64,000 nt of DNA from the NCBI GenBank assembly GCA_964585925.1, contig CAZPFS010000003.1, positions 17,619 through 81,618 of the forward strand, given 5' to 3'. Numbering within the stretch: the stretch's first letter is position 1; each line of letters starts with the position of its first letter. The position numbers and the translations under genes are program-made. Positions 27,050 to 46,192 of the stretch are shown here, one piece after another. A model generated the notes under the pieces. The model was given only the letters and a program-made list of their open reading frames with translations. It did not search any database and was not told the DNA's origin. Origin of the DNA: an uncultured Syntrophomonadaceae bacterium. Its GTDB lineage: Bacteria > Bacillota > Dethiobacteria > DTU022.

Positions 27050-28462
27050 TTAACGATATTTGCTCATAATATCCCTATTCAGAGTCACCGGCGGCAGGTA
27101 ATTTTCGGGTAACAGGCACTTGTATGTAGCCCCGTTAAGCCTTTCTTTGAATTCTTTTATTGCTTTATCTACCAGGTCCTGCTTGATAAACAACTCTGCT
27201 GCAGTGGATGAAAGAAGTTTGGAGGCCACATCCATGGATTTTTTCCCAATAGAAGATTCACTGCAACTTGCGACCCCCCAATTATGCCACCCTGAATTTT
27301 GAGGAGCCATGGCAATCCAGGCAGTGGCATAGGGGGCATTCCAGCTATATTCGGAAGTGTCACAAACTCCGGTATAACCCCCTCCAAAAGGGGCAATTTT
27401 AGTTGCCAGTCCTGTTTCGGGTACTCCCATTTGACGTTGAATTTTTCCGGCTATTTCTTGTTCTTCATTTGTAAATTGCGGTGGCCCGATTTCCTGGAAA
27501 TTTTTGTGAAGCACCTCCGCCAAAGTGCGGCTGGGAATTTTATGATGGGTAGCGGTAATTATTTCTACCTTGAGTCGGGTTTCGGTAGCCAACGCAGCCC
27601 CCTTGGCGCAATTGGTTACCCGTTTCATGGCGTTTTCCGCTTCTTCGGTAGTTACAAATCGTCCAATATACCATGCGGTAGCCCTGTCCGGGACAACACT
27701 TGGAAATTCAGGACCCGTATCACTGAAGGTATAATTGATCGAATTGGCAGCATCGGGGGGGCAACCGGGATAAATATGCTCCCGAAGCATTTCCACGGCA
27801 TGGCCCTGCAGTATGGCTGCATCCAAAGCGCTTCTCCCATGCCAAGGCGAATTGCCATGGGAGGTTTTGCCCTTAAAATGATATTTTATACTAAAATAGG
27901 CACAGCAGCTGTCAAAGTCAGCCCTGTTATAACAAAAAGGATGCCAATCCAGAAAAGCATCAACATCATTGAAATAACCCGCTCTCCCCAGGAAAGGTTT
28001 TCCAATACAAAGCTCCTCCGCCGGACATCCAAAGAGCTTAATCGTGCCGGACAACGCAAATTTATCCAACGCCTTTTTTATGGCGATACCAGCCTTAACT
28101 GCCGCTGCCCCCAGTAAATTATGTCCGCATCCATGCCCGGGTGCGCCTGCAGTGATCGGCTTTTTCTTCGTCGACCCGGCCCTCTGGGAAAGGCCGGGTA
28201 ATGCGTCATATTCAACATTTAATCCAATAACCGGTCTTCCATTGCCATAAGCGGCCACAAAAGCCGTGGGCATGCCCGCCGCTGCTTCTTCTACCTTGAA
28301 CCCCTTAAGTTTAAGTAAATTTATATAAATTTTGGAGGAAGCAAATTCCTGCATTGCCAATTCGGCGCTTTCCCAAACCCGTGACGACGCATTGTAGTAT
28401 TCATTTTTATTTTTCTCATTCCATTCGAGAATAAAGCTTTTAATTTGCTTTAATTTATCCAT
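27050..28462 (-). CDS. M20D-family amidohydrolase (AbgB / YgeY-type peptidase-dimerisation protein)
   Basis: 470 aa. M20 metal-binding regions are present (GHGCGHN..). It resembles aminobenzoyl-glutamate utilisation protein B-type enzymes. Confidence 0.7.
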   Translation of the reverse strand: MDKLKQIKSFILEWNEKNKNEYYNASSRVWESAELAMQEFASSKIYINLLKLKGFKVEEAAAGMPTAFVAAYGNGRPVIGLNVEYDALPGLSQRAGSTKKKPITAGAPGHGCGHNLLGAAAVKAGIAIKKALDKFALSGTIKLFGCPAEELCIGKPFLGRAGYFNDVDAFLDWHPFCYNRADFDSCCAYFSIKYHFKGKTSHGNSPWHGRSALDAAILQGHAVEMLREHIYPGCPPDAANSINYTFSDTGPEFPSVVPDRATAWYIGRFVTTEEAENAMKRVTNCAKGAALATETRLKVEIITATHHKIPSRTLAEVLHKNFQEIGPPQFTNEEQEIAGKIQRQMGVPETGLATKIAPFGGGYTGVCDTSEYSWNAPYATAWIAMAPQNSGWHNWGVASCSESSIGKKSMDVASKLLSSTAAELFIKQDLVDKAIKEFKERLNGATYKCLLPENYLPPVTLNRDIMSKYR

Positions 28463-28527
28463 TTATATCCTTCCAATCTAACGCTTGGGAACATTAATAT
28501 CCTGGTAAAACTGCTCCGTGTCCCAGA

Positions 28528-30165
28528 TTAATCTCCCGAGTTATACATATAAACCGGAATGCTGGGATCCGCGGCCTGAGTTCTGTGCCTGACAAAGTAA
28601 GGCGCCAGGTTAAAAATCAAATTTCTGTATTCTTTTTCATCAGGGGTAAGGCTCCTTGATGCTTTTTCCGCAAGAACCCCTTCCAGTTCCGCCTCATCAA
28701 TATCTGCATGCCGGCCGGCGGAAACTACTACCTTACCATTAACAATAACCGTGTCAACACATTGGGCTGTAGCGCGATAGTTCAGTAGTTCAACAGGGTC
28801 GTCGGCAAAAGCGGCATGGCAACCGCAAACGCGCTTGTGATCCAGCAAAATCATATCGGCACATCGCCCAGGCTCAAGCGCGCCGACAGCCGAACCAAGA
28901 CCAACTACGGAGGCACCGTCGGTGGTGACCATTTTAAAACATTGCGTGCTTGAAAGGGGCTTCAAATTCGGCAATGGAGGCCGGTGCAGGTTTCTGGCCA
29001 AGCGCATTTCCATGAATATGTCCTCATTATCGTTGATTGTTGTGCCATCCATGCCCAGGGCCACTACAATACCCCGTTCCAACATAGACAAGACGGGAGC
29101 AATACCGCTTCTTAAACGCAAATTGGCGCTCGGACAATGAACAATAGACGCACCTGTTTCGGCAATGACATCCAAATCGGTTTCATTCAACCACACGCCG
29201 TGAGCAAAGGAGCTTTTTGAATTGAGAATACCCACTTTTTGCAATCTCCTGAGCAGCCCTTCAGGATAAGCCGTTTTTGCATATCGACGATGCTCAAGAC
29301 TTTCCTGCAGATGCATATGCAGGCAGATGCCCAGCTCTTTTTGGAGCAGCGCCATCTTCTCCATAAGTTCATCACTGCAGTTAAAGGGAATAAGACTTCC
29401 CAGAGCTAATGTAACCAGGTCATTTTCTTTGTTCAGCTGATCATATGTGTCGCGGGCAACGGCAAAATAATCTTCTTGCGGAATAAGTGAGTAGCGCCCC
29501 AGGGCCGAATAGGCTTTTTCTTTTAAATCGGAAGGCAAACTTTCAAAAAAATTAGCGTCATCCGACGGATCCATGGTTAACCCTATTCTGCCCCTGTCCT
29601 GCATTTCCATAGCGAATACTACCCGAATCCCCGCATCTTTATAAGCTCGAATTGTGGTATTGATATCCTCAATATATTCCTTAAGCCCGGCATTGCGGCG
29701 GGTGTGTCGCCGGTGCGAGTGCAATACTGTAGTGACCCCCGTGCGTAAAAGCCGGAGAGCTGAATACAGAGTATCATAGTAAATATCGGTAGTTCTTTCG
29801 GCACGCAGGGCAAATATAAAATTTTCTAAAACGTCGTCGGTTGTGCCCAATTGAAACGTACTTAACCCCCGTCCATGATGATGAGAGTTAACCAACCCCG
29901 GGGACACAATAAACTCAGAACCGCCGATGGTTTTTTCTTCCGGATACTCTTTCTTCAGATCATCATATAATCCTATTTTATCGATTTTTCCACCCTTTAC
30001 TAATATGCCGGCGTCTCGCCAAACTTTTTCCGGAGTGATTACATATCCTCCTGTTACGATCACCACAATCCCTCCCAATGGTTGGTTGTTATCATAAACT
30101 GTTATCTTGTAGGGGTATTTTTTTACCGGATGCGCAGCGGTCCCGGTGCAGTATCCATCAACCAT
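28528..30165 (-). CDS. Metal-dependent amidohydrolase (TIM-barrel; chlorohydrolase / SsnA / guanine-deaminase-like). The real start is probably a GTG near 30063.
   Basis: HxH motif (VNSHHHG). The amidohydrolase-typical N-terminus IVTGGYVITPE...DAGILVKGGKIDKIG is preceded by RBS GGGAGGG. The tracked ORF adds ~34 spurious residues. Confidence 0.7.
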   Translation of the reverse strand: MVDGYCTGTAAHPVKKYPYKITVYDNNQPLGGIVVIVTGGYVITPEKVWRDAGILVKGGKIDKIGLYDDLKKEYPEEKTIGGSEFIVSPGLVNSHHHGRGLSTFQLGTTDDVLENFIFALRAERTTDIYYDTLYSALRLLRTGVTTVLHSHRRHTRRNAGLKEYIEDINTTIRAYKDAGIRVVFAMEMQDRGRIGLTMDPSDDANFFESLPSDLKEKAYSALGRYSLIPQEDYFAVARDTYDQLNKENDLVTLALGSLIPFNCSDELMEKMALLQKELGICLHMHLQESLEHRRYAKTAYPEGLLRRLQKVGILNSKSSFAHGVWLNETDLDVIAETGASIVHCPSANLRLRSGIAPVLSMLERGIVVALGMDGTTINDNEDIFMEMRLARNLHRPPLPNLKPLSSTQCFKMVTTDGASVVGLGSAVGALEPGRCADMILLDHKRVCGCHAAFADDPVELLNYRATAQCVDTVIVNGKVVVSAGRHADIDEAELEGVLAEKASRSLTPDEKEYRNLIFNLAPYFVRHRTQAADPSIPVYMYNSGD

Positions 30166-30180
30166 CTATCTGGAATTTAC

Positions 30181-30888
30181 TTATTGGATTCCCAAATACG
30201 ATTTTTTAATATCCTCATTTTTAATCAGTTCTTCCGCAGAACCTGAACTGACAATATTTCCGGTTTCCAAAACATAGGCCCGATCAGCCAATTTTAAAGC
30301 CGCCCTCACATTTTGCTCAACCAATAGAATTGATAAACCTCTTGATCGGAGAAGATTTAGTGTGTCGAATATTATCTTGACATTGGTCGGTGCAAGCCCC
30401 AATGATGGCTCATCAAGAAGGATTAAGGTGGGATGGCTCATCAACGATCTGGCAACAGCCAACATCTGTTGTTCTCCGCCGCTGAGAGTGCCCCCCAATT
30501 GATCACTTCGTTCTTTGAGTCTGGGAAAAAGCTCGTATACCAAAGCCAGGTCATCATCCAGCTTATTCCTGTCGGAACGGCACAGAGCACCAATTTTAAG
30601 ATTTTCATAGACGGTAAAATAAGGGAATATTCGCCTCCCTTCAGGTGTTTGACATATTCCCAGTCTCAACCTTTCCTCGGGGGGAAGGCTGTCAATTCTT
30701 ATGCCCTTGAACCATATTTGCCCGGACATCAATTTAAGTATACCGGATATGGTCATCAAGGTCGTAGTTTTTCCGGCGCCGTTTGCACCGATGATGGAAA
30801 CTATCTCCTTCTCCTTTACCGATAAAGAAACCCCGTGCAAAACTTTTATATTGTCATAACCCGTTACAATATCTTTTAGCTCAAGCAA
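30181..30888 (-). CDS. livF: Branched-chain amino acid ABC transporter ATP-binding protein LivF type. Probable TTG start at 30888; the tracked ORF start at 30984 overlaps livG by 104 nt.
   Basis: Walker A GANGAGKTT, signature LSGGEQQML. RBS GGAGGGG 7 nt upstream of the TTG. Confidence 0.8.
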   Translation of the reverse strand: MLELKDIVTGYDNIKVLHGVSLSVKEKEIVSIIGANGAGKTTTLMTISGILKLMSGQIWFKGIRIDSLPPEERLRLGICQTPEGRRIFPYFTVYENLKIGALCRSDRNKLDDDLALVYELFPRLKERSDQLGGTLSGGEQQMLAVARSLMSHPTLILLDEPSLGLAPTNVKIIFDTLNLLRSRGLSILLVEQNVRAALKLADRAYVLETGNIVSSGSAEELIKNEDIKKSYLGIQ

Positions 30889-31780
30889 TATTTTCCCCTC
30901 CAAGATAAATCTCAATGACTTTGGGGTCGTTTTGAATTGCCTCCGGACTTCCCTCCGCAATTTTTGTTCCATGATTGAGAACAATAACCCGGTTTGAAAC
31001 TCCCATCAGCACCTTCATGTGGTGCTCTACAATTATGATGGTTATGCCCATATCATTGATTTTTTTAAACAGCTTAATCGATTCCAGCGCCTCTTGAGTG
31101 TTCATGCCGGCGGTTGGTTCATCGAGCAGGAGCAATGACGGCTTTGTTCCGATCGCCCTTGCTATTTCCAGCCGGCGCTGGTTCCCATATGAAAGATTCC
31201 CCGCAATAATATTTTTCGAATCGTCCAATCCAAAAACCACTAAAATATTCCTGGCTTGGTGGTATAGTTCCTCTAATTCCTGTTTCGCTCTCCCGGTTCT
31301 AGCGATCATGCTTAATTTACTGCTCCTGGCATGCAGGTAACAGCTTATCAGCACATTATCTATAACTTTTAATTCTTTGAACAACCGGATGTTTTGGAAA
31401 GTACGAGATATTCCTGTCTTGGTTACCGCATCCATTTTAAAATTCGTGATGTCCCGGTTCTGGAACAATATTTTGCCGTTAGTGGGTAAAAACATACCGG
31501 TAATCAGGTTGAAGGTAGTGGTTTTTCCCGAACCGTTTGGTCCAATGAGGCCCAAAATTTCTCCCTTGTTTACAATTAAACTGACATCATTTACAGCGCG
31601 GACTCCTCCGAATTCCTTGGTTATATTCTTAAGTTCAAGCAAAATATTCACCTCCCCGGTACTAGTTTTTTTGTTTTGCGGCATATTTTGGCTGTCAGGT
31701 TTTTGTAAATCCCGGTAATTCCATTTGGAGCGTATATAATAAGATAAATCAATATTACGCCATAGACAACCAACCTCCAT
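30881..31780 (-). CDS. livG: Branched-chain amino acid ABC transporter ATP-binding protein LivG type. Probable TTG start near 31642 (MLELKNITKEFGG..).
   Basis: Walker A GPNGSGKTT, signature LSYGNQRRLEIA. RBS GGGGAGGTG upstream of the TTG. The tracked N-terminus overlaps livM by 133 nt. Confidence 0.8.
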   Translation of the reverse strand: MEVGCLWRNIDLSYYIRSKWNYRDLQKPDSQNMPQNKKTSTGEVNILLELKNITKEFGGVRAVNDVSLIVNKGEILGLIGPNGSGKTTTFNLITGMFLPTNGKILFQNRDITNFKMDAVTKTGISRTFQNIRLFKELKVIDNVLISCYLHARSSKLSMIARTGRAKQELEELYHQARNILVVFGLDDSKNIIAGNLSYGNQRRLEIARAIGTKPSLLLLDEPTAGMNTQEALESIKLFKKINDMGITIIIVEHHMKVLMGVSNRVIVLNHGTKIAEGSPEAIQNDPKVIEIYLGGENIA

Positions 31781-32634
31781 TCCCCCAGCATACGGAGGTA
31801 TTCCATCAGAAAGGTTATGATTGCAGCCCCTATCAAAGGACCCGTAATTGTACCGAGCCCGCCCAGAATAGCCATCGTAACCACCATAATTGAAGCTGGG
31901 CCGGAGAAGCTGTCGGGACTTATAAAACCAATGTAATGTGCATAAAAAGCTCCTGCCAAACCGGCAATAAAAGCGCTTATGGCGAATGCCAGCACTTTGC
32001 TGTAATAAGTGTTAACACCTACGGAGGCCGCGGCTATGTCATCGGATTTAAGGACCCTCCATTCCAGGCCTACTCTGGAGCTGCAAATCAAATTTATCAG
32101 GATGGTCACAATCAACAAAATGATCATTATCAAATACAATATATGGTTTCGGGAACAGAATTTAAATCCAAACAACACGATTTGGGGGACTCGGGGAAGG
32201 CCTGAAGGGCCCCCTGTAACCCCGACCAAATTTTTGAATAAAAGAAATGCAATTTGCTGAAAGCCCAACGTTGTAACCGCAAAATAAATTCCACGGGTCC
32301 GCAAGCTGGGCAATCCAATCAAAACCACACCCAGTAAACAAGCAGTTGATGCGCCAATAAAGATGGTGGCTATGATCGGCAAATCATAACGCATGCTGAG
32401 AATTGCGGAAGTGTAGGCGCCCATTCCAAAAAGAGCGCCGTGGCAAAGAGACATCTGCCCCGCAAACCCGGTTATGATATTCAGGCTGCCGGCCAACAAA
32501 CCATAAATCAAGATTATGATCATCAAATGCAGAACATAATTGCTTCGTATGATTTGCGGCAAAACCAGTATCAGTAACAGGAGAATCCCTTTGATAACCC
32601 ATTTATATCGATCCAGCTTCATCATTGATTCCAT
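31648..32634 (-). CDS. livM: Branched-chain amino acid ABC transporter permease LivM type
   Basis: 328-aa polytopic membrane protein. Its operon position is between livH and livG. Confidence 0.75.
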   Translation of the reverse strand: MESMMKLDRYKWVIKGILLLLILVLPQIIRSNYVLHLMIIILIYGLLAGSLNIITGFAGQMSLCHGALFGMGAYTSAILSMRYDLPIIATIFIGASTACLLGVVLIGLPSLRTRGIYFAVTTLGFQQIAFLLFKNLVGVTGGPSGLPRVPQIVLFGFKFCSRNHILYLIMIILLIVTILINLICSSRVGLEWRVLKSDDIAAASVGVNTYYSKVLAFAISAFIAGLAGAFYAHYIGFISPDSFSGPASIMVVTMAILGGLGTITGPLIGAAIITFLMEYLRMLGEWRLVVYGVILIYLIIYAPNGITGIYKNLTAKICRKTKKLVPGR

Positions 32635-32709
32635 CCTTTTAAAATCGCATGTTAAATTAACATAGTTTAGCTTTGCTTTCCAACCAAATTTATAGCGTGT
32701 TTTGTTCCA

Positions 32710-33582
32710 TCACATTTTTTTACCAAATATGCCGGTTGGTCTGAAAACAAGCATTACAATCAACAGAAAAAAAGCAACTATATCCCGATACCCGGAGAAC
32801 AAAAAGGATTCAGCCAGCCCCTCGATAAGACCAAGGGCAAAGCCGCTGACAATCGCTCCGGCGATATTGCCCATCCCTCCGATAACCACCAATACAAAAG
32901 CCTTGAGCCCCAATGTTTCGCCCATTGTTGGTTGCAAAACAAAAATCGGGGCAATTAATACTCCGGCAACTCCGGCCATCCCTGCCGCGAGGGCAAAAGA
33001 ATAAGAAACGACCTTGTTAACCCTCACGCCAACCAATCTGGCCATATCATTGTCTTGTGAATACGACCTGATCTCCAAGCCTAACCAGGTGCGTCTGATC
33101 AGGTAATTCAGGGCAATTAGAAGTATCACCGCAGCGATGATAATTATTATCCTTTGCACGCTCATCGATACACTTCCAAACTGAACCACCTGATCTGCAT
33201 AAGGGGTATGAAAGCTTCTAGGCACTGAGCCAAATACGATCTGGGCCAAATTCTGAAGAAGTACAGCCAAGCCGAGGGATGCCATTAATTGGTTTAAAAT
33301 ATGTTTTCCCCGGAGCGGGCGAAATATCAACCGCTCAGTGGAAACCCCTATTATAGCCGCCAGAAAAAAAGCGCCGATCAAAGAACCGAAATAACCAATA
33401 CCCAAGTAGGAATACAACACCATGCCCAGGTACGCGCCGATCATGTACTTCTGCCCGTGCGCAAAATCAATAACCTGCAATACCCCGGTAATCAGGGTAA
33501 GCCCTGTGGCGACTAAGGTATAAATCCCTCCCCTTACAAGGCCGTGTATAATTTGTTGTGTCAGTTCTTCCATTACATTCAT
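32710..33582 (-). CDS. livH: Branched-chain amino acid ABC transporter permease LivH type
   Basis: 290-aa membrane permease immediately after the substrate-binding protein gene. Confidence 0.75.
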   Translation of the reverse strand: MNVMEELTQQIIHGLVRGGIYTLVATGLTLITGVLQVIDFAHGQKYMIGAYLGMVLYSYLGIGYFGSLIGAFFLAAIIGVSTERLIFRPLRGKHILNQLMASLGLAVLLQNLAQIVFGSVPRSFHTPYADQVVQFGSVSMSVQRIIIIIAAVILLIALNYLIRRTWLGLEIRSYSQDNDMARLVGVRVNKVVSYSFALAAGMAGVAGVLIAPIFVLQPTMGETLGLKAFVLVVIGGMGNIAGAIVSGFALGLIEGLAESFLFSGYRDIVAFFLLIVMLVFRPTGIFGKKM

Positions 33583-33661
33583 TCCATTCTAGTAAGATAA
33601 TAAAAATGTTAATAGGAAGAATTAACGGGGGCGATCTCAAAATCACCCCCGTTTAACCGAT

Positions 33662-34837
33662 TTATTCTGCCATTAGTTCTTCCATGGTATACAATTGCTT
33701 GTCGGCAAGAACCCTTTTCCCGTCTCGGATCACAGAAAACAATTGTTGGAATTCAAGCTGACCTTTTTCATCAAAATGAACCGGTCCCATGGGGCTTCCC
33801 AGACCATCTGTCGCCGCAATAGCATCCCTTACCTTGATCGGGTCTGCGCTTCCGGCACGCTCGATCGCATCCAGAACAATGAGCAACCCGCCATATCCTT
33901 CGGCTGCATAATTGGTAGGAAGGTATCCATATTTATTTTCAAATGTTTCAACCAATTTTTTGGTCGCGCTGTTTCTGAGGAAGGTTGGCTCAAAAACCGA
34001 TTTAATGATCATCCCCTCAGCGCTGTCACCGGCAATCCTGATCAGCTCATCGTCAGCCAGTCCGCCAAAACCGCCAAGTTGCGTTTCAATTTTAAGCTCC
34101 TTAGCCTGACGAACAATTTGGGCGCCGTCTCCAACCCAAGAGGCAATCAAGATCATATCGGGGTTGGTTCCCTGAACCTTGGTCAGGAGGTTATAGTAAT
34201 CGGTTTCCCCGGGGTTATGTGTTTCAGCCGCCACGATTTCCAAGCCCAATCTTTGGGCCGGTTGGGCAAATGATTCATAGGTTGTTCTGCCGAAGTCATC
34301 GTTGGGGTAAATAATGGCTACTTTTTCATATTCTAAAATGTTTTTTACATATTCCGCAATTGCTTCCGCCTGAAATCTTGCCTGGGTGGTTACCCGGAAT
34401 ACAAAATGATAACCCAGCTCAGTGATATCCGGGGCAAGAGCAGCTGTAAGCACCGGTATTTGCGCAGATTCGAAATCAGGCAAAACCGCCAATACACATG
34501 GGCTGTTGAAAGGCCCCAACACGGCTGTTACGTTATGCTGGGTTATTATTCTGTTTGCAGCATTAATGCTCTCATCAGGTTTTGCCGCATCATCAAAAAC
34601 TACCAAATCAATTTTGCGCCCCAGCACGCCGCCGGCATTGTTTACTTCCTCGATGTGCATTTGAATCGCTCTTAAAGGTTCTTCCCCCAGATATGCCGCC
34701 GATCCGGTAAGGGGTCCAATAAACGCAAGCTGTATAGGCTCCTCTGCTGCTTCTTCCTCGGCAGTACAACCAGCCAGGACAAAAAGTAACAAACATGTTA
34801 ATATCACAGACAATACTATGCTGTTACGAAGACGCAT
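33662..34837 (-). CDS. livK: ABC transporter substrate-binding lipoprotein, LivK / periplasmic binding protein type I
   Basis: Signal peptide plus lipobox (VLAGCTAEEEAAEE) and a type-I PBP fold. 391 aa. Confidence 0.75.
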   Translation of the reverse strand: MRLRNSIVLSVILTCLLLFVLAGCTAEEEAAEEPIQLAFIGPLTGSAAYLGEEPLRAIQMHIEEVNNAGGVLGRKIDLVVFDDAAKPDESINAANRIITQHNVTAVLGPFNSPCVLAVLPDFESAQIPVLTAALAPDITELGYHFVFRVTTQARFQAEAIAEYVKNILEYEKVAIIYPNDDFGRTTYESFAQPAQRLGLEIVAAETHNPGETDYYNLLTKVQGTNPDMILIASWVGDGAQIVRQAKELKIETQLGGFGGLADDELIRIAGDSAEGMIIKSVFEPTFLRNSATKKLVETFENKYGYLPTNYAAEGYGGLLIVLDAIERAGSADPIKVRDAIAATDGLGSPMGPVHFDEKGQLEFQQLFSVIRDGKRVLADKQLYTMEELMAE

Positions 34838-34941
34838 TTTGCAATACCCCCTGATTTTTATTTACATATGTTGTTAGTTGGCATCGGCACCGCGTTGATT
34901 TATTTGTTGGATCACCCCATTTTGGTTGATTGCCGAAGGGA

Positions 34942-36675
34942 TCAGATTTCCTTCAGCAGTTCCAAAGAACAATTCAAGGCATCATAGCATTGATTTCTTC
35001 TTCTCATTGCCCTGGTATAATGGGTTTTGTAATTTTCGCTCTCTACCGGAAATCTTTCAAGACGTTCGAGATCCGTAAGGCCGGGCAATGGATTTTTTAA
35101 ATCCGACAGGCCATATGTGTCCTGCCCGTATCTGCCGATCACGGTATGCCTGACAGGCAGCGTGTACCGACACAATTTCATGAGGATCTTATTGATATTT
35201 TTTATTTGTTCACTGGCTATGGTCATTTTTTTCAGATCACCCTTGAGCTGTTCCAATTTTTTTGCCTTCTCCGTAAATCCATTGTTCAACTCGATCAGGC
35301 TGCTGATATCAATATCATGCTTTTCACCCATTTTTTCCAGCCTGGATAACCGCTGGGTAAATTCATCAGCCACACTGCAAAATTCAAAAGGCAAAATATC
35401 CCGATTCAGCATTTCCCATACAAAACCGGCATTGCACCTCAGATCCCTCATCAGAACATTTTCATCAACCTTGTCAATGGTGTCCAGATCGCTGTGATAC
35501 CACCAGCCAAGAATAGCTCCTTTCCATTTGGCTATTTCTTGGTGAGAATGCATGGAAAGACCAAACAGGGATGGAATACCTATTCCAAAAAATGATTGGT
35601 CGCCAATCTTGTCCTGCCGTATTTCATCATAAGGAGTATCCTTTAAAAATTTTGCGGCAACCTGACGGGCAAACAGTTTTAATTCAGCTGTGCTCCAAGC
35701 GACAAACCGTGAGGCTCCCAACATGCCCGGGGAATCAATGTTTAAATAGGCGATCCCATTGTTTTGCAACTGGCTCCAGTTATGATCCACATACCATGTG
35801 GAGCCTTCCATAATGCCTGTTTCATGGCCGGGCCAAAATCCAATGACCACACTCCTTTTTAAACGAGGTTGATTTTGGGCCAAAACACGGGCAATTTCCA
35901 TGGTAACAGCGTTTCCCGTCGCATTGCAGGTAACCCCTGCATTCCAGGCATCATAGTGCCCCCCCACCACAATAAATTTTTCAGGTTCATCATTACCCTG
36001 AATAAAGCCAAGCGGTTCAATAATTTTACGCCACTCCCGCGTACATTCGCTTTTGATCCAAAGCGTTACCTTCCCGCGCCGGCAGAGCTCTATTAAACGA
36101 TCGCCGTCTTTCCTCATGATGCTGACAACCGGTATTTTAGGCATCTGCTTGATATCTTCAGGTGTTGGATTGCCCCAGGGAGCTTTAACCGTCCCATACG
36201 TTAAATTTTCAAACTCAGGAGATCCCCAATTTGCCATTACAACCGCAAGAGCGCCGTTTACGGTGGCAATTCGTACCTTTTCGGGACGCGGGGGATCATA
36301 TGACAAGTCAAGCAAAACTATCTTGTTTTTAACATCTAAGCCGTTATACCTTTCCTCTTTGCCCTCCCCAAGATATACAACTTCTCCTTCCAATCCCTCT
36401 TTGGGAGTGGACACACCTTGCGCAAAAACAGAACAAGGTAATTCTGCAGCTTCAGGCGCTAAAATTTTTAACCGGCCGCTTATGGGGAAGGAAACCAAAC
36501 CATCCAGGTAATGTAAATGTGTATCTACCCCTGCCCCTTGCAGTTCGGTTTGGATATAGCGGGAAACCTCTTTTTCCACCTCAGTACCGGATAATCGCTC
36601 CTGAGCTATGTCGGTAATGTTATTGATATCTTTAAATGTCCTGGAAATTGAAAGTTGATCGATATAATCCAGCAT
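34942..36675 (-). CDS. M28-family metallopeptidase with a PA (protease-associated) domain (glutamate-carboxypeptidase-II / transferrin-receptor-like)
   Basis: 577 aa with Zn-ligand regions (GGHYDAW, GHETG). The domain order is PA, then peptidase, then a dimerisation-like C-terminus. Confidence 0.6.
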   Translation of the reverse strand: MLDYIDQLSISRTFKDINNITDIAQERLSGTEVEKEVSRYIQTELQGAGVDTHLHYLDGLVSFPISGRLKILAPEAAELPCSVFAQGVSTPKEGLEGEVVYLGEGKEERYNGLDVKNKIVLLDLSYDPPRPEKVRIATVNGALAVVMANWGSPEFENLTYGTVKAPWGNPTPEDIKQMPKIPVVSIMRKDGDRLIELCRRGKVTLWIKSECTREWRKIIEPLGFIQGNDEPEKFIVVGGHYDAWNAGVTCNATGNAVTMEIARVLAQNQPRLKRSVVIGFWPGHETGIMEGSTWYVDHNWSQLQNNGIAYLNIDSPGMLGASRFVAWSTAELKLFARQVAAKFLKDTPYDEIRQDKIGDQSFFGIGIPSLFGLSMHSHQEIAKWKGAILGWWYHSDLDTIDKVDENVLMRDLRCNAGFVWEMLNRDILPFEFCSVADEFTQRLSRLEKMGEKHDIDISSLIELNNGFTEKAKKLEQLKGDLKKMTIASEQIKNINKILMKLCRYTLPVRHTVIGRYGQDTYGLSDLKNPLPGLTDLERLERFPVESENYKTHYTRAMRRRNQCYDALNCSLELLKEI

Positions 36676-36757
36676 TTACATCACCCCTTATAAATTTATA
36701 GATTTCAAAACGGACAAAATTTTTAAAAGGCACCTTGTCCCGCAAAAAATAGGTGAA

Positions 36758-37660
36758 TCAACGATTCCTTAAAAATACCGGCAATTGTTCCTCTTTTTGA
36801 CCCTTGTATTGGCAGTGTACAACAACATGATCGACCTTGGTGTTTTTCGCCTGTTGGGCGGATCTGATATCACAGGTCTCACAAATGGCTTTTCTCGGCA
36901 TCAGCGGAGGCTCGCCTTTGATCGACTCTATCAGGCTGATTGCTTTTTCAAGAGCCGCGCTGTCTCCCTCCGCAATCAAGCTTACCGAACCTTCCGAACC
37001 GCCGTGGCCTCCGGAGGCGACATGAAAGCCGTCAACTCCGGTCAGAATCTTCAATGCTTCGATTTCCGTGATTACCCTGGCCCCTGTAAGCGGAATCATT
37101 CCAAGTTTCATGCCGCTGCAATAATCGAGTTTTTGTATCCCGCACAGCTCAACAGACTGTTTTACCGAAGGCACCATTTTTTCCAAACCGACGGGAGAAA
37201 TAATTTGTATCCCCTGGGCTAAAAGCATTCCTATAGCCCATCCTACAGCTCCTCCTTCCGGATGGCCGACAAAAGCTGCAACGTTGCCTTCCCTATCCAG
37301 GGCATTGGCGCCTTTAACAAAAACTGAGTTTTTATCAAACTGGACCAACATCTCGGCCATGGTGGGGGTGGGGGGTTGAATTTCTCCCCTGTCAATAAAC
37401 AAACTGATCGGTTTCTCTTCAACCAGCGTTTGGCAAGTAACCCCTTTGGTCAGAACCCCGGATAGATACTTATTCCGGTCAAACAGCTCATTAAATTTTT
37501 CTTTTCCCAGGATTTCTTCCGCCACATATACATTTGTTGATCCCAATTGGATATGCAACTTGCCGTTTCTTAAAGCGTTTTTTATCTCCTTCATTTCGGC
37601 AACGCCTTTTCCAATAAGCCTTTTTGATTCAGCAGGTGTTAGTACAAATAATGCACGCAT
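36758..37660 (-). CDS. Conserved hypothetical protein (300 aa), operonic with the CyuA-like gene upstream
   Basis: No family recognised. It has a Gly-rich segment (ASGGHGGSEGS) and a C-terminal Cys/His cluster (ICETCD...VVVHCQ). Confidence 0.4.
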   Translation of the reverse strand: MRALFVLTPAESKRLIGKGVAEMKEIKNALRNGKLHIQLGSTNVYVAEEILGKEKFNELFDRNKYLSGVLTKGVTCQTLVEEKPISLFIDRGEIQPPTPTMAEMLVQFDKNSVFVKGANALDREGNVAAFVGHPEGGAVGWAIGMLLAQGIQIISPVGLEKMVPSVKQSVELCGIQKLDYCSGMKLGMIPLTGARVITEIEALKILTGVDGFHVASGGHGGSEGSVSLIAEGDSAALEKAISLIESIKGEPPLMPRKAICETCDIRSAQQAKNTKVDHVVVHCQYKGQKEEQLPVFLRNR

Positions 37661-37828
37661 TTGATTCCCTCCTTAAATATAGTAACCAACCGCTGATTTT
37701 GAGGCAGCCGATAAACACCCATATTTGCTAAAATATTTCGGTACATTTCGGCTCTACCTCACTTATTCCTGCATTTCCCCTCACTACGAAAAAGATTGGA
37801 ATACCCCAACTGTTTGGTTTTATTCCAA

Positions 37829-39253
37829 TTATCCCATGGATTCGATAATCTGAACCAAGGCTTTATCCGCGCACTGCATTCCTTTGTTGACCAGGAAGGA
37901 AGCGTTGCCAATAGTGTGTTCGGCGCCGGGACCAACAATTCCGTCCTTGGGCTGAATAACAACACCCCGTATCGCCAGCATAGCGGCATCATAAGCGGTG
38001 CTTGCAGCCACAGAGAGTTTTAAGGCACAGCCTCCTTTGGCACCGTCGCAGATCATTCCGGCAAGAGCGCCGATAACATTGATCACCGCCGCCTGTAAAT
38101 CCAGATCGCTGCCGCCCTGTAAATACGCCAGCGCGGCTGAAGCCCCTGCACCGGCGGCAATTGCACACCCGCAAACGGGGGTCAGAATTCCAATTTTTGA
38201 TTTTATGTATATAGTTATCAGAGTACTCAGCGCAATGGCTCTTAAAACATTTTCCTCTGAGATCTTATTTATCTCTGCAAAGGTGCCAATCGGAACAATG
38301 GCGGTAATACCCTGGTTTCCGCTCCCCGCGATAGCCGCTACCGGAAAATCCAAACCATTCATTCGCACATCACAGGCTGCCGAAGTGAGAATCTTTATTC
38401 GATTGAATAGATGCAAATTGGATGTTTTTGCTTTTGTATCCCCATATATTTCCTGCAAAGCCGCGCCAAAAAAATTAACCCCTACCTCTTTTAAACCTGC
38501 CCGGGCTATTTGCATATTCATTTCCCAGCTGTCACTTAGAAATTCAATTTCTTTGGGATCAATTTCATGTATAAATTTGATTATTGCAGCCAAATCCAAT
38601 CCATCAAGGGCGCTTCCTTTGTAATTACCTGCTCCGCAGGGATTGCAAAGAATTGCATTTCCGTTATGCTCCAAACAAACGACATTCGTATGGTTTCCTG
38701 TAATCAGACAGCGACCGTGATCGCTGTCAGTCTTTATACAAACATCAATGTATAGGCCAAATTGCTCGCGTATTTTTATTTCAATTAATGACGCGTTTAC
38801 CATTTTTATGGCTTTACCAATGTCATCTTCATTGATGTCCTTTAAAACCTCCAATTGGTATTGCGGTTTCCCGGCAATCACGCCCAATGCCACCGCATAG
38901 TCAAGCCCTTTTAGGGTTGTCCTAGGAATCGTAACTCGCAGACAATTTTTATAAAAATTATTATCCACCAAAACCGTTATTGACTTAATTTCACCGGATG
39001 TTTTTTCCCTTGCCAGCGCTCCCGCATAGGCCAAAGCCACAGGTTCAGTGCAGCCCAAAGCCGGCTGTATATTGCTTTTTAAAATGTTTAGTACAGCTTC
39101 CTCGTTCAAAATATAATCACCTGCTTCTTCATATTCATCAACTGCTGTATCCTTGTTAAATACAAACAGCAATATGCATGCCATGTCTGGATTGCGGCGC
39201 TGCAATTGCTTTTTCAGGAAAATCACTGTTACGCAAACCGGAAACTTTATCAT
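37829..39253 (-). CDS. UPF0597 / serine-dehydratase-like protein of the YhaM (CyuA) L-cysteine desulfidase family
   Basis: Motifs shared with E. coli YhaM: ALGCTEPVALA, GNHTNVV, GSGNQGITA, MICDGAKGGCALK. The tracked start may be ~30 aa too early. Confidence 0.65.
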   Translation of the reverse strand: MIKFPVCVTVIFLKKQLQRRNPDMACILLFVFNKDTAVDEYEEAGDYILNEEAVLNILKSNIQPALGCTEPVALAYAGALAREKTSGEIKSITVLVDNNFYKNCLRVTIPRTTLKGLDYAVALGVIAGKPQYQLEVLKDINEDDIGKAIKMVNASLIEIKIREQFGLYIDVCIKTDSDHGRCLITGNHTNVVCLEHNGNAILCNPCGAGNYKGSALDGLDLAAIIKFIHEIDPKEIEFLSDSWEMNMQIARAGLKEVGVNFFGAALQEIYGDTKAKTSNLHLFNRIKILTSAACDVRMNGLDFPVAAIAGSGNQGITAIVPIGTFAEINKISEENVLRAIALSTLITIYIKSKIGILTPVCGCAIAAGAGASAALAYLQGGSDLDLQAAVINVIGALAGMICDGAKGGCALKLSVAASTAYDAAMLAIRGVVIQPKDGIVGPGAEHTIGNASFLVNKGMQCADKALVQIIESMG

Positions 39254-39403
39254 ATTGATAAATATAGCCGTCCGGAATTAGCCCTATGCTCCCTTTTCTT
39301 CCCGCAATCCCGGTATTATCATATTGATAATAAGCATTTATTATAGTTACCAAATGTCTAAATCGTTCAATAGCAGGAGAAGTTTAAGGATAAGCGAAGT
39401 ATA

Positions 39404-41212
39404 TTGAATAGGTTGCCAAATGCCAAACAACAGGGCTTGCTCGCCAGGTTTATGGGGAATACTGCCTGTGATCCTGAGGAAGGGGTTTTCATGCAAAACA
39501 TTGCCGAAGTTATTGCAAGTGTATTGAAATTAGATGTAACTATTGTAGACAAAAATTTGAGCCGGGTCGCCGGCACGGGCTATTATTTTGATAAAGTGAA
39601 CACATTAATACCCTGTGGCTCTTCTTTTGATTTTGTACTAAGCACCGGCAAGAAGATGGTAATATCCAATGTGGGAGATGGCCTATGTCAGGGATGTTCA
39701 ATGCGGGAGAGTTGCGTTGAATTGGCCCATGTATGTTGCCCCATATGTATCGAAGAAAAACCAATCGGCGTCCTGGGCCTGGTAGCCTTTGATTCGGAAC
39801 AACGCAGCCGTTTGTTAAATGCATTGAATGACTATGAGGATTTTTTAGATCAAATATGTAATTTAATTGCCGCAAAAATTCGCGGAGATGAAACTATCGA
39901 CGAATTGCTGGCGGCGCATAGCCAGATCAGCATTATTATGCAGACTGTCAATGAAGGCATGATGCTTGTTAATGATCAGGGTCGGGTAACTTATTGCAAC
40001 AAGGCTTCGGAAATCCTTCTTGAAACCCCCGCCGGGCTTATTGTTGGTCGGCACATTAAAGAAATATTCAACGATACCGAAATGGACTGGTCAAAACCAC
40101 TGCAAGAGGATTTTGAATTCAGAGAAGTAACCAGGGTGGAACAAAATCATAGAATCAGTTGCTTTGTTACCAACAAGCCCGTGCAGGTAGACCATAAGTA
40201 CCTTGGAGCGGTCCTAACCTTTTACACGGCAAGCACCGTACACAGGTTGGTGGGGGAATTTTCCAGTGATCAGATAGATCATAGCTTCAATACTATCCTC
40301 GGCAACAGCAAGGCCATTGTAGAATGTAAGCACCAGGCCGCTTTGGCGGCAAAAAGCAACTCCACCGTCTTGATTACCGGCGAAACGGGCACCGGCAAGG
40401 ATCTGTTGGCGCGTGCGATACATAGTTCCAGCAGTAGAAAGGAAAAAGCTTTTATTGCCATAAACTGCGCGGCTATTCCGGAAACACTGCTGGAGAGTGA
40501 ACTTTTTGGTTATGAGGAAGGGGCATTTACCGGGGCAAAAAAGGGGGGGAAACCGGGTAAATTTCAATTGGCCGACGAGGGCACCCTGTTTCTTGATGAA
40601 ATTGGAGACATGCCCCTATTTTTGCAAGTTAAATTATTGCGTGTACTTCAGGAAGGCTCTGTAGAGAGGGTAGGAGGGGTAAATAAAATCCCGCTCAATG
40701 TGCGTATTATTGCCGCTACCAACCGCAATTTGGGGGAGCTTACAAAGCACGGTGAGTTCAGGGAAGATCTTTTTTATAGAATTAATGTTATTCCCATCGA
40801 GATCCCCCCTTTGCGCGAAAGATCCTCCGATGTTAGGATTCTTATTGATCATTTTTTGGAACATTACGGCAAACTGCTGGAGAAGCCATACCTGCGTTTC
40901 TCACCGGAAGCGCTGCAACTTTTGTGCAATCACAATTGGCCCGGTAATGTGCGGGAGTTGGAAAACATTGTGGAATATGCTGTGAATATGGCCACTGCAG
41001 GTAGAATTACCGTTGAAAATTTACCTAAAAAATTACAAATAGACAAAGATACGGAAGCGGTTACACCTCTGGCGGAATTGGAAAAAAAGGAACTGCAGAA
41101 GGCCCTTAACTATTTTGGAAATACTACAGAATCCAAGAAAAAAATATCATCTGCCCTCGGAATCAGCATCGCTTCGGTATATCGTAAATTAAAACTGCAC
41201 GGCTTGGCTTAA
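39404..41212 (+). CDS. Sigma-54-dependent transcriptional activator (GAF-like Cys-rich sensor, PAS, AAA+ sigma-54 interaction domain, Fis-type HTH). The likely start is ATG ~39491 (MQNIAEVIAS..).
   Basis: Walker A GETGTGKDLLARAIH, the GAFTGA motif (EEGAFTGA), ESELFGYE, and a C-terminal HTH. RBS GAGGAAGGGG before 39491. Confidence 0.85.
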   Translation: MNRLPNAKQQGLLARFMGNTACDPEEGVFMQNIAEVIASVLKLDVTIVDKNLSRVAGTGYYFDKVNTLIPCGSSFDFVLSTGKKMVISNVGDGLCQGCSMRESCVELAHVCCPICIEEKPIGVLGLVAFDSEQRSRLLNALNDYEDFLDQICNLIAAKIRGDETIDELLAAHSQISIIMQTVNEGMMLVNDQGRVTYCNKASEILLETPAGLIVGRHIKEIFNDTEMDWSKPLQEDFEFREVTRVEQNHRISCFVTNKPVQVDHKYLGAVLTFYTASTVHRLVGEFSSDQIDHSFNTILGNSKAIVECKHQAALAAKSNSTVLITGETGTGKDLLARAIHSSSSRKEKAFIAINCAAIPETLLESELFGYEEGAFTGAKKGGKPGKFQLADEGTLFLDEIGDMPLFLQVKLLRVLQEGSVERVGGVNKIPLNVRIIAATNRNLGELTKHGEFREDLFYRINVIPIEIPPLRERSSDVRILIDHFLEHYGKLLEKPYLRFSPEALQLLCNHNWPGNVRELENIVEYAVNMATAGRITVENLPKKLQIDKDTEAVTPLAELEKKELQKALNYFGNTTESKKKISSALGISIASVYRKLKLHGLA

Positions 41213-42597
41213 CCGCCTGCTTCAGTTCTAAACTGGTTTAAAATAGACAAATAATCATCCGGCGTATCCAGATCCATCAATATTTCCGGTGCATCCACTT
41301 CCACCGGACAAAGATCACGATCGCTCAAGCAATGGAGCAACTGGCTTCCTCCCCGGTCTCCCTTTAGCTCCATCAACATGGGCCAGGTCCGGCGATCAAA
41401 CAGCACGGGGTTTCCCCGGCGGCCCCGGTAAGTGGGATATACGGCCAGGGGAAGACGGCTGCGGTAGCGTTCAAGCAAACTGCTATAGACCCGGGCCGGA
41501 ATAAACGGCTGATCCCCCAGTATAAACATGGCTCCCTGGGAGGTGGCAGACACCTGAGAAAGCCCTGCCTGTAAAGAGGTGGAAATCCCCAGCTGCGCAC
41601 GTTCGTTGATCACAACCTTCAGCTTGAACCTGGACAGGCGTGCGCCCAGCCAGGCTGTTTCCGGGTTGATCACCACAATGATCTCACCGTCACTAGACCG
41701 GATCAGGTTTTGCAGGGTCTGTTCCAGCACGGTGGAGTCGCCAAGTTCCAGGGTCATCTTGTCTTTGCCCATGCGCCTGGACAAACCGGCTGCCAGCACC
41801 ACCCGGGACACCTCCGGCGCCGCCCTTTCCCCGCTTATGCCGAAAATAAATTGCAGGGGCACCGGCCGGCAGGCAGAGGTAAAAACAATATGGCGAATAT
41901 CATCAATGCCCGCCGTCAAATCGGCTATTTTTGTTATTATCCCGGGATCAGAAATCAGATCTGCCTGATTGAATACCGGCACCGTGCGGGCTCCCGGGGC
42001 CTGGCGGCAGCCCAGTTCAACCATCCATTTCATGCCGCGTACCAGGTGCTCGGCGGTGATGGTTTCACCCATCTGCATCCGGGCAATTATCGAAAATAGT
42101 TCCGGCCGGTGGACTGTCCCCGGGCTCAGGGCGGTTCCCAAACCGATCAAACCCATTACCGGCAGGGCTAGGCCGGAATCTGGGGGCAGTACCGGCTCAT
42201 GGGAGGCATACCCTTTAAGCGGTTTTCTCGCCGCCCCGTCGCATTCCGCTAAAGCAAAGGATACTTCCGGCTCCGAGACGATCCGCCCCGGCCAGGAAGG
42301 ATCTATCCCCTTGAGCTTGCCTTCCGGCAGCAGACCTGCGGCCAGGACTACCGGATCCCTCCCGGCGGGCAGTAGTCTCAATTTGCGGACAACTTCAGTC
42401 AGCGTTCCGGCCAAGATCAGGGGGAAAGAAGGATGTTGGAAGATCTTGGTGGTGGTGGTTACTACTACCTTTTTCTCCCCTCCGGCCAGTTCGCCCGCCA
42501 GCAGATACAGCAGGGATGTTTTTCCCCCGGCCCCGTATATGGATATTATTTCTTTCTGCTTGATCCCCAAACAGGATGAAAGCAGCAAATTATTCAT
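41209..42597 (-). CDS. Fusion of a YqeC-type selenium-dependent-hydroxylase accessory protein (N-terminus) with a MocA/MobA-like molybdenum-cofactor cytidylyltransferase (C-terminus)
   Basis: The N-terminus has a P-loop-like GAGGKTSLLYLLAGEL. The C-terminus has the MobA-like VLAAGLSRRMG.DK.......TVLE...N signature. 462 aa versus two separate genes (yqeC, mocA) in E. coli. Confidence 0.65.
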   Translation of the reverse strand: MNNLLLSSCLGIKQKEIISIYGAGGKTSLLYLLAGELAGGEKKVVVTTTTKIFQHPSFPLILAGTLTEVVRKLRLLPAGRDPVVLAAGLLPEGKLKGIDPSWPGRIVSEPEVSFALAECDGAARKPLKGYASHEPVLPPDSGLALPVMGLIGLGTALSPGTVHRPELFSIIARMQMGETITAEHLVRGMKWMVELGCRQAPGARTVPVFNQADLISDPGIITKIADLTAGIDDIRHIVFTSACRPVPLQFIFGISGERAAPEVSRVVLAAGLSRRMGKDKMTLELGDSTVLEQTLQNLIRSSDGEIIVVINPETAWLGARLSRFKLKVVINERAQLGISTSLQAGLSQVSATSQGAMFILGDQPFIPARVYSSLLERYRSRLPLAVYPTYRGRRGNPVLFDRRTWPMLMELKGDRGGSQLLHCLSDRDLCPVEVDAPEILMDLDTPDDYLSILNQFRTEAGG

Positions 42598-42617
42598 CTT
42601 TCGCCTTCCCGATTGTT

Positions 42618-44807: not shown

Positions 44808-44920
44808 CTTTTCACCTCGTTTGCCTTGAACAGCTTTTGCTCACAAAATCTTGCCCAAATCCTGAAAGCGCGACCATGATCGTTATTTGTTTGTAAGCAT
44901 AACGGTCTTAAAAAAAATAT

Positions 44921-45715: not shown

Positions 45716-45743
45716 CGATATTTAACAACCTTTCCGGATTAAT

Positions 45744-45774: not shown

Positions 45775-45809
45775 ATATGTCCCCGCGATTTGGTAACCCC
45801 TATTTGTTT

Positions 45810-46177: not shown

Positions 46178-46192
46178 ACCACAAAATATTGT

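Follow-up and report, generated by a model that had tools for sequence, protein, structure and literature searches.

A candidate sigma-54-controlled catabolic island headed by a CyuA-type cysteine desulfidase gene in an uncultured Syntrophomonadaceae bacterium

In a stretch of 64,000 nucleotides from an uncultured Syntrophomonadaceae bacterium (GTDB lineage Bacteria; Bacillota; Dethiobacteria; DTU022; assembly GCA_964585925.1, contig CAZPFS010000003.1, positions 17,619 to 81,618 of the forward strand), hereafter the window, a gene for a sigma-54 enhancer-binding protein (EBP) lies divergent from a string of hydrolase, importer and lyase genes. Which of these genes does the activator control, and what do their products break down? 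Listing of open reading frames (ORFs) and domain scans resolved positions 27050-41212 into 11 genes, namely the activator gene and a divergent string of ten genes all on the minus strand. This bore out the gene list of a preliminary description of the DNA (M20D, TIM-barrel amidohydrolase, livKHMGF, M28/PA, 300-aa protein, CyuA-like protein and sigma-54 activator). We consider it moderately probable that the locus as a whole is an acquired island on which the activator drives a ten-gene operon that converts an imported N-blocked compound to pyruvate. In this reading the promoter, its enhancers, the clade of the regulator, the active site of the lyase and the unity of the island are taken from the sequence; co-transcription, the inducer and the substrate we infer.

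The target of the activator was located at the head of the ten-gene string. The preliminary description had called the locus sigma-54-controlled but reported no canonical -24/-12 promoter in a divergent region of 150 bp; the element escaped notice because the longest ORF had been adopted for each of the two divergent genes. For the CyuA-like gene this ORF begins at 39253, and homology to CyuA of E. coli, M. maripaludis (crystal structure) and N. glycerini starts approximately 48 codons inside it. The start was placed at TTG 39109 because the homologue alignments and a ribosome-binding site (RBS), AGGTGA, fit there. The activator starts at ATG 39491, with RBS GAGGAAGG, and not at 39404; every homologue, including E. 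coli YgeV, aligns from this position. The two corrections thus widen the divergent region to approximately 380 bp, and a near-consensus sigma-54 promoter lies within it at 39184-39166. Public gene calls carry a 474-aa long form of the CyuA-like gene, which covers the promoter and enhancer signals. This call needs correcting, as it conceals a sigma-54 promoter of textbook form together with its enhancers.

The promoter, ATGGCATGCATATTGCTGT, has one mismatch to TGGCAC-N5-TTGCW, its strand and its distance from the CyuA-like start codon are right, and it would start transcription near 39157. Scored with a position weight matrix derived from 29 SigL promoters published for C. difficile, it was the top site of the window, at 18.5 bits, which is inside the range of the 29 training promoters. 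Sites of at least 18.5 bits were present in 11 of 400 shuffled windows, and approximately 1e-4 are expected per 200-nt single-strand stretch. The matrix scan of the window thus upholds the view of a sigma-54-controlled catabolic locus and supplies the promoter on which the activator would act. Two identical perfect palindromes lie upstream as candidate enhancers (upstream activating sequences, UAS), spaced 69 bp apart, and exact copies of TTATCATATTGATAA occur only at these two places in the 64 kb. A second sigma-54 promoter within the operon was considered and rejected: the next-best sites, at 27929 and 28739, are intragenic and lack the -12 GC. A sigma-70-like consensus match (TTATCA-17-TATTAT, 39316-39344, plus strand) overlaps UAS1 and faces the regulator gene, a position that would allow autoregulation by the activator.

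The activator itself combines a GAF-like domain (a weak GAF match), a PAS domain, Sigma54_activat (PF00158, E=2e-71) with the GAFTGA motif, AAA_lid_14 and HTH_8. The HTH_8 match (E=2e-4, 21.5 bits) is just below the Pfam cut-off of 22 bits, and the C-terminus aligns with the helix-turn-helix of relatives. The protein is 55% identical to an EBP of Neomoorella glycerini and 36% identical to E. coli YgeV, with alignments beginning at 39488-39491. N. glycerini provides the closest relative with a readable context: there the activator gene is directly upstream of a CyuA-like gene, and the intergenic region holds three TTATCA-N3-TGATAA-type palindromes and a 21.9-bit sigma-54 promoter. With this CyuA-linked regulator the activator shares 40% identity in its PAS domain, and with every other relative tested at most 27%; against YgeV only a 42-residue stretch could be aligned, at 24%. 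Judged by sequence, we place the activator in the YgeV/DioR/CdsR2 clade and, because of the N. glycerini context and the PAS identity, in a CyuA-linked subgroup of it. A regulator of 75% identity (P0127) is encoded on a contig that stops 147 bp past the gene, and no palindrome or promoter was found on that contig.

The GAF-like domain carries the motif C-x2-C-x5-C-x6-CC, previously described as an unusually Cys-rich sensor region. The motif is real but it is a trait of the clade and not unusual. C-x2-C-x5-C is invariant in 18 aligned sequences (the activator and 17 relatives), among which the CC pair is frequent without being universal. In a separate comparison, YgeV proved to have C-x2-C-x5-C and to lack the CC pair. 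A role for the motif as a locus-specific cysteine sensor was ruled out, as it is conserved in YgeV and all relatives.

We also asked whether the palindrome identifies the regulon. A comparative study that also covers cdsB reports that DioR controls dpaL-pbuX-pyrC, ygeW-ygfK-ssnA-ygeY and yqeC-ygfJ-yqeB-xdhC, and that its UAS in C. botulinum, C. tetani and C. sporogenes is (A)TTTATCA-N3-TGATAA(T); CdsR1 sites differ, and in C. difficile the sites of CdsR2 and DioR are of a TCTCA-N3-TGAGA variant. The island palindrome equals the published DioR sites of the three former species. In E. coli K-12 we found an exact TTATCATAATGATAA between mocA and ygfK (locus L097, 17790-17804), upstream of the ygfK-ssnA-ygfM-xdhD urate operon. 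It is likely to be a YgeV binding site, a prediction based on its having the same form as the clostridial DioR sites. No strong -24/-12 match lies beside it, the best, with the clostridial matrix, being 9.4 bits upstream of ygeW. Typing the regulator by its palindrome as CdsR-like or DioR-like was dropped, as the motif equals DioR sites and is clade-wide. Being common to the YgeV/DioR/CdsR2 clade, it therefore cannot by itself separate a purine from a cysteine regulon. Elsewhere in the clade, a member of 49% identity (locus L013, 11853-11951) lies beside rpoN and upstream of genes for a PALP enzyme and an SHMT-like protein. The call of this PALP gene is probably also too long, because a GTATCAGGATGATAC palindrome and a 13.4-bit promoter overlap its called start.

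Next, the product of the first gene behind the promoter was compared with known desulfidases. It belongs to SDH_alpha/UPF0597 (PF03313), is 36% identical to E. coli CyuA and matches the L-cysteine desulfidase of PDB entry 9fsl with E=1e-35. A 2025 structural study of CyuA described three strictly conserved [4Fe-4S] ligands (MmCyuA Cys287, Cys329 and Cys336), a catalytic Glu25 with Cys23 in a GCTE motif that is absent from serine dehydratases, an anion/carboxylate site of Arg223 and Asn239, and Lys339 near the cluster. The window protein, numbered from TTG 39109, keeps the cluster cysteines (C313, C354 and C361), the GCTE motif (G19-C20-T21-E22), and R249, N265 (the Asn of SGNQG) and K364. All these key residues are invariant in a three-way alignment of the window protein, E. 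coli CyuA and the N. glycerini protein. At the level of sequence, the CyuA-like protein is a cysteine desulfidase.

The activator and the ten genes share an origin. G+C content at third codon positions (GC3) is 0.43-0.51 in each of the 11 genes and 0.55-0.69 in every flanking gene, and the shift falls at two convergent gene ends, 27028/27050 and 41209/41212. The low GC3 common to the 11 genes therefore indicates that regulator and operon came in together and are foreign to their neighbours. Positions 27050-41212 are best explained as one horizontally acquired, self-contained catabolic island of approximately 14 kb with compositional unity. A plasmid search found no match to the island DNA on any known plasmid, and the plasmid-borne CyuA homologues, at most 36% identical, were uninformative. 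No riboswitch or other RNA family was found by Rfam in the window or the island. The features of the island are collected in Table 1.

Table 1. Genes, regulatory sites and RNA hairpins of the island (positions of the window)
Feature	Position	Strand	Evidence or remark
Sigma-54 enhancer-binding activator, 573 aa	39491..41212	+	Pfam domains, homology
UAS1, distal candidate enhancer, perfect 15-bp palindrome TTATCATATTGATAA	39316..39330	.	~166 bp upstream of inferred start
UAS2, proximal candidate enhancer, identical palindrome TTATCATATTGATAA	39247..39261	.	~97 bp upstream of inferred start
Predicted sigma-54 (-24/-12) promoter ATGGCATGCATATTGCTGT	39166..39184	-	GG 39182-39181, GC 39170-39169
CyuA/CdsB-type [4Fe-4S] L-cysteine desulfidase homologue, 426 aa, first operon gene	37829..39109	-	PF03313 E=6e-51
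Weak stem-loop then UCUUUUUC, after desulfidase gene	37795..37829	-	centroid -12.2 kcal/mol, z=-0.8
Conserved 300-aa protein, five invariant Cys	36758..37660	-	no Pfam or NCBIfam match
PA-domain M28-family metallohydrolase, 577 aa, cytoplasmic	34942..36675	-	M28 E=2e-16, PA E=6e-7
LivK/LivJ-type substrate-binding lipoprotein, lipobox LAGC	33662..34837	-	Peripla_BP_6 E=2e-69
13-bp GC-rich hairpin after binding-protein gene, no U-tract	33624..33653	-	-24.3 kcal/mol, z=-3.2
LivH-type permease	32710..33582	-	BPD_transp_2 E=1e-41
LivM-type permease, start refined	31648..32625	-	BPD_transp_2 E=2e-39
LivG-type ATPase, start overlaps livM stop	30881..31651	-	NF008449 E=5e-77
LivF-type ATPase, start overlaps livG stop	30181..30888	-	NF008626 E=3e-74
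Divergent TRZ/ATZ/SsnA-clade TIM-barrel metal amidohydrolase/deaminase, ~512 aa	28528..30066	-	Amidohydro_1 E=3e-49
M20D-family amidohydrolase, 470 aa, last operon gene	27050..28462	-	TIGR01891 176.8 bits, cut-off 153.75

Does the promoter serve the desulfidase gene or the whole string? The genes from livH to livF overlap or abut, the amidohydrolase gene begins approximately 114 nt after livF, or 15 nt after it if its longest ORF is taken, and a further 65 nt separate it from the M20D gene. The stem-loops after the desulfidase and 300-aa genes have U-runs, yet they are no more stable than shuffled sequence; the former is possibly a leaky terminator or attenuator. The hairpin after the binding-protein gene is strong and has no U-tract; it is probably an mRNA stabiliser or attenuator. 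Such a hairpin is typical of elements that raise the mRNA of a binding protein relative to that of the permease genes. Read-through from a single promoter into all ten genes is the simplest reading of this layout, and most probably they are co-transcribed.

The alternative that survives best is a mosaic, which we regard as possible but unlikely. Sigma-54 and the EBP would then drive the desulfidase gene alone, for detoxification or utilisation of cysteine as in CdsR-cdsB, and the other nine genes would be one or more separate units on the same island, serving the general uptake and hydrolysis of amino acids or peptides. This would fit cdsB, a single-gene unit in Clostridia, and the CyuA-like gene of N. 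glycerini, which is followed by unrelated NifU and Fur genes. It would also fit the 168-bp gap with its stem-loop and U-run after the desulfidase gene, the further stem-loop after the 300-aa gene, and the occurrence of the 300-aa, M28 and M20D families elsewhere without CyuA. However, no sigma-70-like or sigma-54 match was found in the internal gaps of 168, 82 and 104 bp, the stability of the two U-run hairpins does not exceed that of shuffles, and all ten genes share strand and composition on an island with one regulator.

If the ten genes do form one operon, the importer should indicate what enters the cell. The ABC importer consists of five components in the order K-H-M-G-F, all scoring below NCBIfam equivalog cut-offs, and the nearest PDB entries to its binding protein are Leu/Ile/Val binders. 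In LivJ, Ser79, Thr102, Tyr202 and Glu226 clamp the alpha-ammonium and alpha-carboxylate groups of the ligand, Glu226 pairing with the alpha-ammonium. In an alignment at 26% identity, the island protein keeps Ser79 and has Gly in place of Glu226, Leu in place of Thr102 and Trp in place of Tyr202; the column of Glu226 is anchored by an invariant TQ...G...G. The lack of LivJ Glu226 points to an amino-acid-like ligand without a free alpha-amino group. Such a ligand would fit an amidohydrolase of the deaminase clade, an M20D enzyme of deacylase or decarbamoylase type and a beta-eliminating lyase as the last enzyme. Of the ureido, carbamoyl or amino-acid intermediate proposed in the preliminary description, the ureido, carbamoyl and N-blocked class thus stays reasonable, but specific compounds are speculative. 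It would be speculation to name N-acyl- or N-carbamoyl-cysteine, aminothiazoline or thiazolidine carboxylates, or purine-derived ureides.

The enzymes that would act on the import are less familiar. The longest ORF of the amidohydrolase spans 28528-30165, and its start is probably GTG 30066/30063, giving 511-512 aa. Its HxH, HxHxxE, H and D motifs are intact and it scores below every NCBIfam equivalog cut-off: it reaches 163.4 bits where one SsnA model requires 455.5 and 182.5 bits where the other requires 444, and several deaminase models give it similar scores. Identity to E. coli SsnA is 27-32%. Among 1.84 billion representatives the protein is alone in its 50% cluster, the best other representative being 39% identical, and its nearest relatives of approximately 510 aa likewise have no assigned function. 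A metagenome scan with it returned relatives of only 27-31% identity, unusable for synteny. The nearest PDB entries to the M20D protein are HmrA (3ram) and Xaa-Arg dipeptidases. No signal peptide was found in the M28 protein, which makes it a cytoplasmic enzyme. Its PA/M28 family shows an invariant His284-Glu285 (alignment A2), at a position where M28 peptidases normally have a Glu-Glu pair that serves as general base and metal ligand; the family may not be a conventional aminopeptidase. It is widespread in archaea, including Asgard metagenome-assembled genomes.

The 300-aa protein belongs to a family with more than 5,700 matches and no Pfam domain. Members from Firmicutes, Thermodesulfobacteriota and Planctomycetes are 57-64% identical, with C76, C173, C260, C263 and C283 invariant. 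The predicted fold appears just distantly similar to the eIF2B/ribose-phosphate-isomerase (RpiA)/CoA-transferase superfamily, and a Foldseek search of it against the PDB gave no match at E<=0.001. The family recurs beside genes for a creatinase-like M24 protein, a long PF04199 cyclase and SBP_bac_5 (loci L003-L011 and L099). The closest homologue (P0002) likewise has M24, cyclase and SBP_bac_5 genes in its context and no CyuA. In one case a family member lies beside a sigma-54 activator of the PrpR_N type.

Is the gene combination found elsewhere? A genome scan with the single M28 protein gave 118 pattern hits and no relative; repeated with a profile, it found the M28/PA family at 78 loci in bacteria and archaea. 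None of the 78 has a CyuA-like, 300-aa, amidohydrolase or EBP gene nearby, and one (L014) has an adjoining M20D homologue. The closest M28 homologues, at 47% identity, have genes for a racemase-family protein, an importer of the Opp type and an M20 peptidase as neighbours, and one of these operons has the C-terminus of an EBP upstream. A literature search on PF06032/DUF917, a neighbour of these homologues, gave no useful result. The combination was absent from every other genome examined. Parts of the island recur in operons that import and hydrolyse a small amide, and their combination is unique in the data reached. The remark that the arrangement was not recognised as characterised has thus held up in the searches of M28 loci, metagenomes and representative clusters.

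Taken together, these features suggest how the ten genes might work as one unit. The activator would bind the two palindromes; an inducer filling its GAF-like/PAS sensor would cause it to use ATP to open the sigma-54 promoter. The transcript would begin with the [4Fe-4S] L-cysteine-desulfidase-type lyase (CyuA/CdsB) and read through two weak hairpins into the remaining nine genes. The LIV-type importer would bring in an amino-acid-like compound without a free alpha-ammonium, whether N-blocked, ureido or cyclic, and the hydrolases would remove its blocking groups step by step until cysteine, or a beta-substituted alanine much like it, is left. This product the desulfidase would then split into pyruvate, ammonia and sulfide. 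In favour of this substrate class also count the cytoplasmic location of the M28 protein, the importer and M20 genes in the operons of its closest homologues, and the adjoining M20D and M28 homologues of L014. The island thus probably breaks a small nitrogen/sulfur compound down to pyruvate.

Several findings weigh against this proposal. The full gene set was found together nowhere else, so that comparison with other genomes lends no support to the idea of one pathway. No role is assigned to the amidohydrolase, the M28 protein or the 300-aa protein. U-run stem-loops stand 3' of the desulfidase and 300-aa genes, and cdsB is monocistronic in C. difficile. The palindrome, found across the clade and the same as the site of the purine regulator DioR, does not by itself point to cysteine. 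The CyuA-like proteins of the window and N. glycerini are just 31% identical, and no rpoN gene was found within the 64-kb window, the part of this genome that was covered.

The neighbourhood raises a different question, namely whether the island belongs to purine catabolism. It adjoins a molybdenum-hydroxylase/purine cluster with a yqeC-mocA fusion, a split yqeB and an XDH-family hydroxylase with 2Fe-2S and YgfM-like subunits; AllG, AllH, FdrA, carbamate kinase, a PucR regulator and a xanthine/uracil permease are also encoded on this flank. The reductive urate pathway consists of XdhD-YgfM, YgfK, SsnA, HyuA, YgeW (with YqeA), YgeY and YgeX, of which YgeX converts 2,3-diaminopropionate to pyruvate (10.1101/2025.05.19.654654; 10.1101/2025.04.24.650524; PMC12990295). 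SsnA is its marker enzyme (IPR017700/TIGR03314/NF005540). The island could replace or supplement the lower branch of anaerobic purine/urate degradation and import a ring-opened ureide, for instance diureidopropionate, albizziin or 2,3-diaminopropionate. The inducer sensed by the activator would then derive from purines, the amidohydrolase and M20D protein would take the roles of SsnA/HyuA and YgeY, and the Fe-S lyase would replace the pyridoxal phosphate (PLP)-dependent YgeX in forming pyruvate.

This reading draws on adjacency, the clade of the regulator and analogy between enzyme families, and we think it quite unlikely. The activator does fall in the YgeV/DioR clade, at 36% identity to YgeV, and its palindrome has the form of the clostridial DioR sites and of the site that precedes ygfK in E. 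coli. Next to the island lie yqeC-mocA, yqeB, the XDH-family hydroxylase, the YgfM-like gene and carbamate kinase. The order of families, from ring-opening amidohydrolase to M20 ureidohydrolase to pyruvate-yielding lyase, would parallel the urate route, in which enzyme swaps such as UacY for YgeW are known, and the binding protein lacks the alpha-ammonium clamp. Orthology, however, is missing. M20D and SsnA/HyuA-like hydrolases had been called hallmarks of purine clusters. That claim fails on the amidohydrolase, which at 163-182 bits is far under the SsnA cut-offs of 444-455, and on the M20D protein, which is of a different M20 subfamily (TIGR01891) and gave no match with YgeY of E. coli at E<=1e-5. 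A search of the window with E. coli proteins matched homologues of XdhD, YgfM, YqeB, YqeC, MocA and YqeA on the flank; no homologue of YgfK (UacX), HyuA, YgeW, YgeX or YgeY was found in the window (tblastn, E. coli queries, E<=1e-5, at least 80 aa).

The regulation also differs. The flanking purine genes have a PucR-type regulator and no palindrome or sigma-54 promoter, and the island is foreign to them in composition. The nearest relative of the activator with a known context controls a CyuA-like gene and not purine genes, and the PAS sensor of the island activator resembles that of this CyuA-linked N. glycerini regulator, not that of YgeV. The lyase keeps the Cys/Glu pair that separates cysteine desulfidases from serine dehydratases, and neither paper on the urate pathway mentions, for such clusters, an ABC importer or an enzyme of the CyuA type. 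Of the proposed purine link, what stands is a regulator of the YgeV/DioR clade with the same DNA motif; pathway orthologues and a matching composition are absent from the island.

The flank itself divides in two. The XdhD/YgfM-type hydroxylase and the YqeB, YqeC and MocA genes lie at 41209-49670, outside the island, and the molybdenum hydroxylase scores under every equivalog cut-off. Its accessory genes are arranged otherwise than in E. coli, with the yqeC-mocA fusion at 41209-42597. The split yqeB has an XdhC-like N-half at 42952-43776 (34% identity) and a C-half at 44921-45715 (52% identity), with a MoCF_biosynth gene at 43773-44807 between them. The longest ORF at 49035-49877 (plus strand) has no domain; tblastn showed the real gene to be a YgfM-like FAD subunit on the minus strand, at 49017-49670. 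A second nitrogen-catabolic cluster occupies 49891-62031, with AllG, a PF04199 cyclase, FdrA/AllF and carbamate kinase (both above cut-off), PucR, a xanthine/uracil permease and AllH. It also encodes an aspartate-carbamoyltransferase-type catalytic subunit and a family III CoA-transferase (nearest to oxalate/formyl-CoA types, below cut-off). This cluster seems to be an ATP-yielding branch of the oxalurate/oxamate type next to the XDH genes.

There is finally a slim chance that the island encodes an undescribed pathway, in which the sensor drives import of a cyclic, N-carbamoyl or N-acyl derivative of cysteine or of a beta-substituted alanine and the island enzymes feed the Fe-S lyase in place of YgeX. 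The amidohydrolase, atypical M28 protein, M20D protein and 300-aa protein would convert the import to the lyase substrate, and 2-aminothiazoline-4-carboxylate, a thiazolidine carboxylate, N-carbamoyl-cysteine and a purine-derived ureide are candidates. If true, this would be a counterpart, based on sulfur or Fe-S, of the lower part of the reductive urate pathway, and the 300-aa family would gain its first functional handle from it.

Should the ten genes act together as favoured above, they would define a new route in an anaerobe from an N-blocked or cyclic import to pyruvate, ammonia and sulfide, with a bearing on H2S production. The 300-aa family with its thousands of members, the M28 subgroup with the unusual HE motif and the amidohydrolase subfamily of approximately 510 aa would in that case be seen in a functional context for the first time. 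Independently of the pathway, the TTATCA-N3-TGATAA enhancer is common to E. coli YgeV, clostridial DioR and CyuA-linked activators, and regulon prediction from it alone cannot tell purine from cysteine regulons.

How does the island compare with known systems? The closest characterised analogue, which the preliminary description left out, is the sigma-54/CdsR-controlled CdsB of C. difficile, whose gene is cysteine-induced, SigL- and CdsR-dependent and monocistronic (PMC5767170; PMC6615313; PMC7438776). In both systems an EBP of approximately 580-590 aa (PAS, AAA+ with GAFTGA, Fis-type helix-turn-helix) adjoins a CyuA-family gene, the first gene encodes a desulfidase with an intact active site, and an inverted-repeat UAS lies upstream. 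The cdsB promoter ATGGCATGTATTTTGCTAT is near-identical to that of the island. These likenesses are drawn from published descriptions and sites. By contrast, the C. difficile UAS half-sites are TCTCA/TGAGA and those of the island TTATCA/TGATAA, and the island desulfidase gene is followed by nine more genes.

The E. coli YgeV and clostridial DioR regulons share with the island the EBP clade, the Cys motif, the TTATCA-N3-TGATAA site, the neighbouring yqeB/yqeC/mocA/XDH-type genes and, if the proposed mechanism holds, hydrolases feeding a pyruvate-yielding lyase. Their defining enzymes are all missing from the island, which has a Fe-S CyuA type in place of the PLP enzyme YgeX, a LIV-type ABC system in place of a nucleobase permease, and a composition unlike that of the adjacent purine genes. 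The cyuPA operon of E. coli and Salmonella, which serves the import and desulfidation of cysteine under anaerobic conditions, is reported to be regulated by the Lrp-family protein CyuR (10.1101/2023.05.16.541025). As on the island, it encodes a CyuA-type desulfidase (36% identity, all key residues) with an importer, but this is the permease CyuP and there are no hydrolases, whereas the island has an ABC importer and hydrolases. CyuR-cyuPA also uses sigma-70 and not a sigma-54 EBP. With LIV-I (LivJ/K-HMGF) the island shares the five-component K-H-M-G-F layout, whilst the absence of LivJ Glu226 and Thr102 from its binding protein argues for a different ligand.

In Pseudomonas, AtcB and AtcC convert 2-aminothiazoline-4-carboxylate to L-cysteine by a hydantoinase/carbamoylase-type route. 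The island would resemble this in concept only, an amidohydrolase opening a cyclic or N-carbamoylated precursor and an M20-type enzyme freeing the amino acid, and its enzymes belong to other subfamilies (deaminase-clade amidohydrolase and M20D). The regulatory core of the island, a CyuA-type desulfidase under sigma-54/EBP control, is thus of a known type, and what is new is the gene combination of the extended operon.

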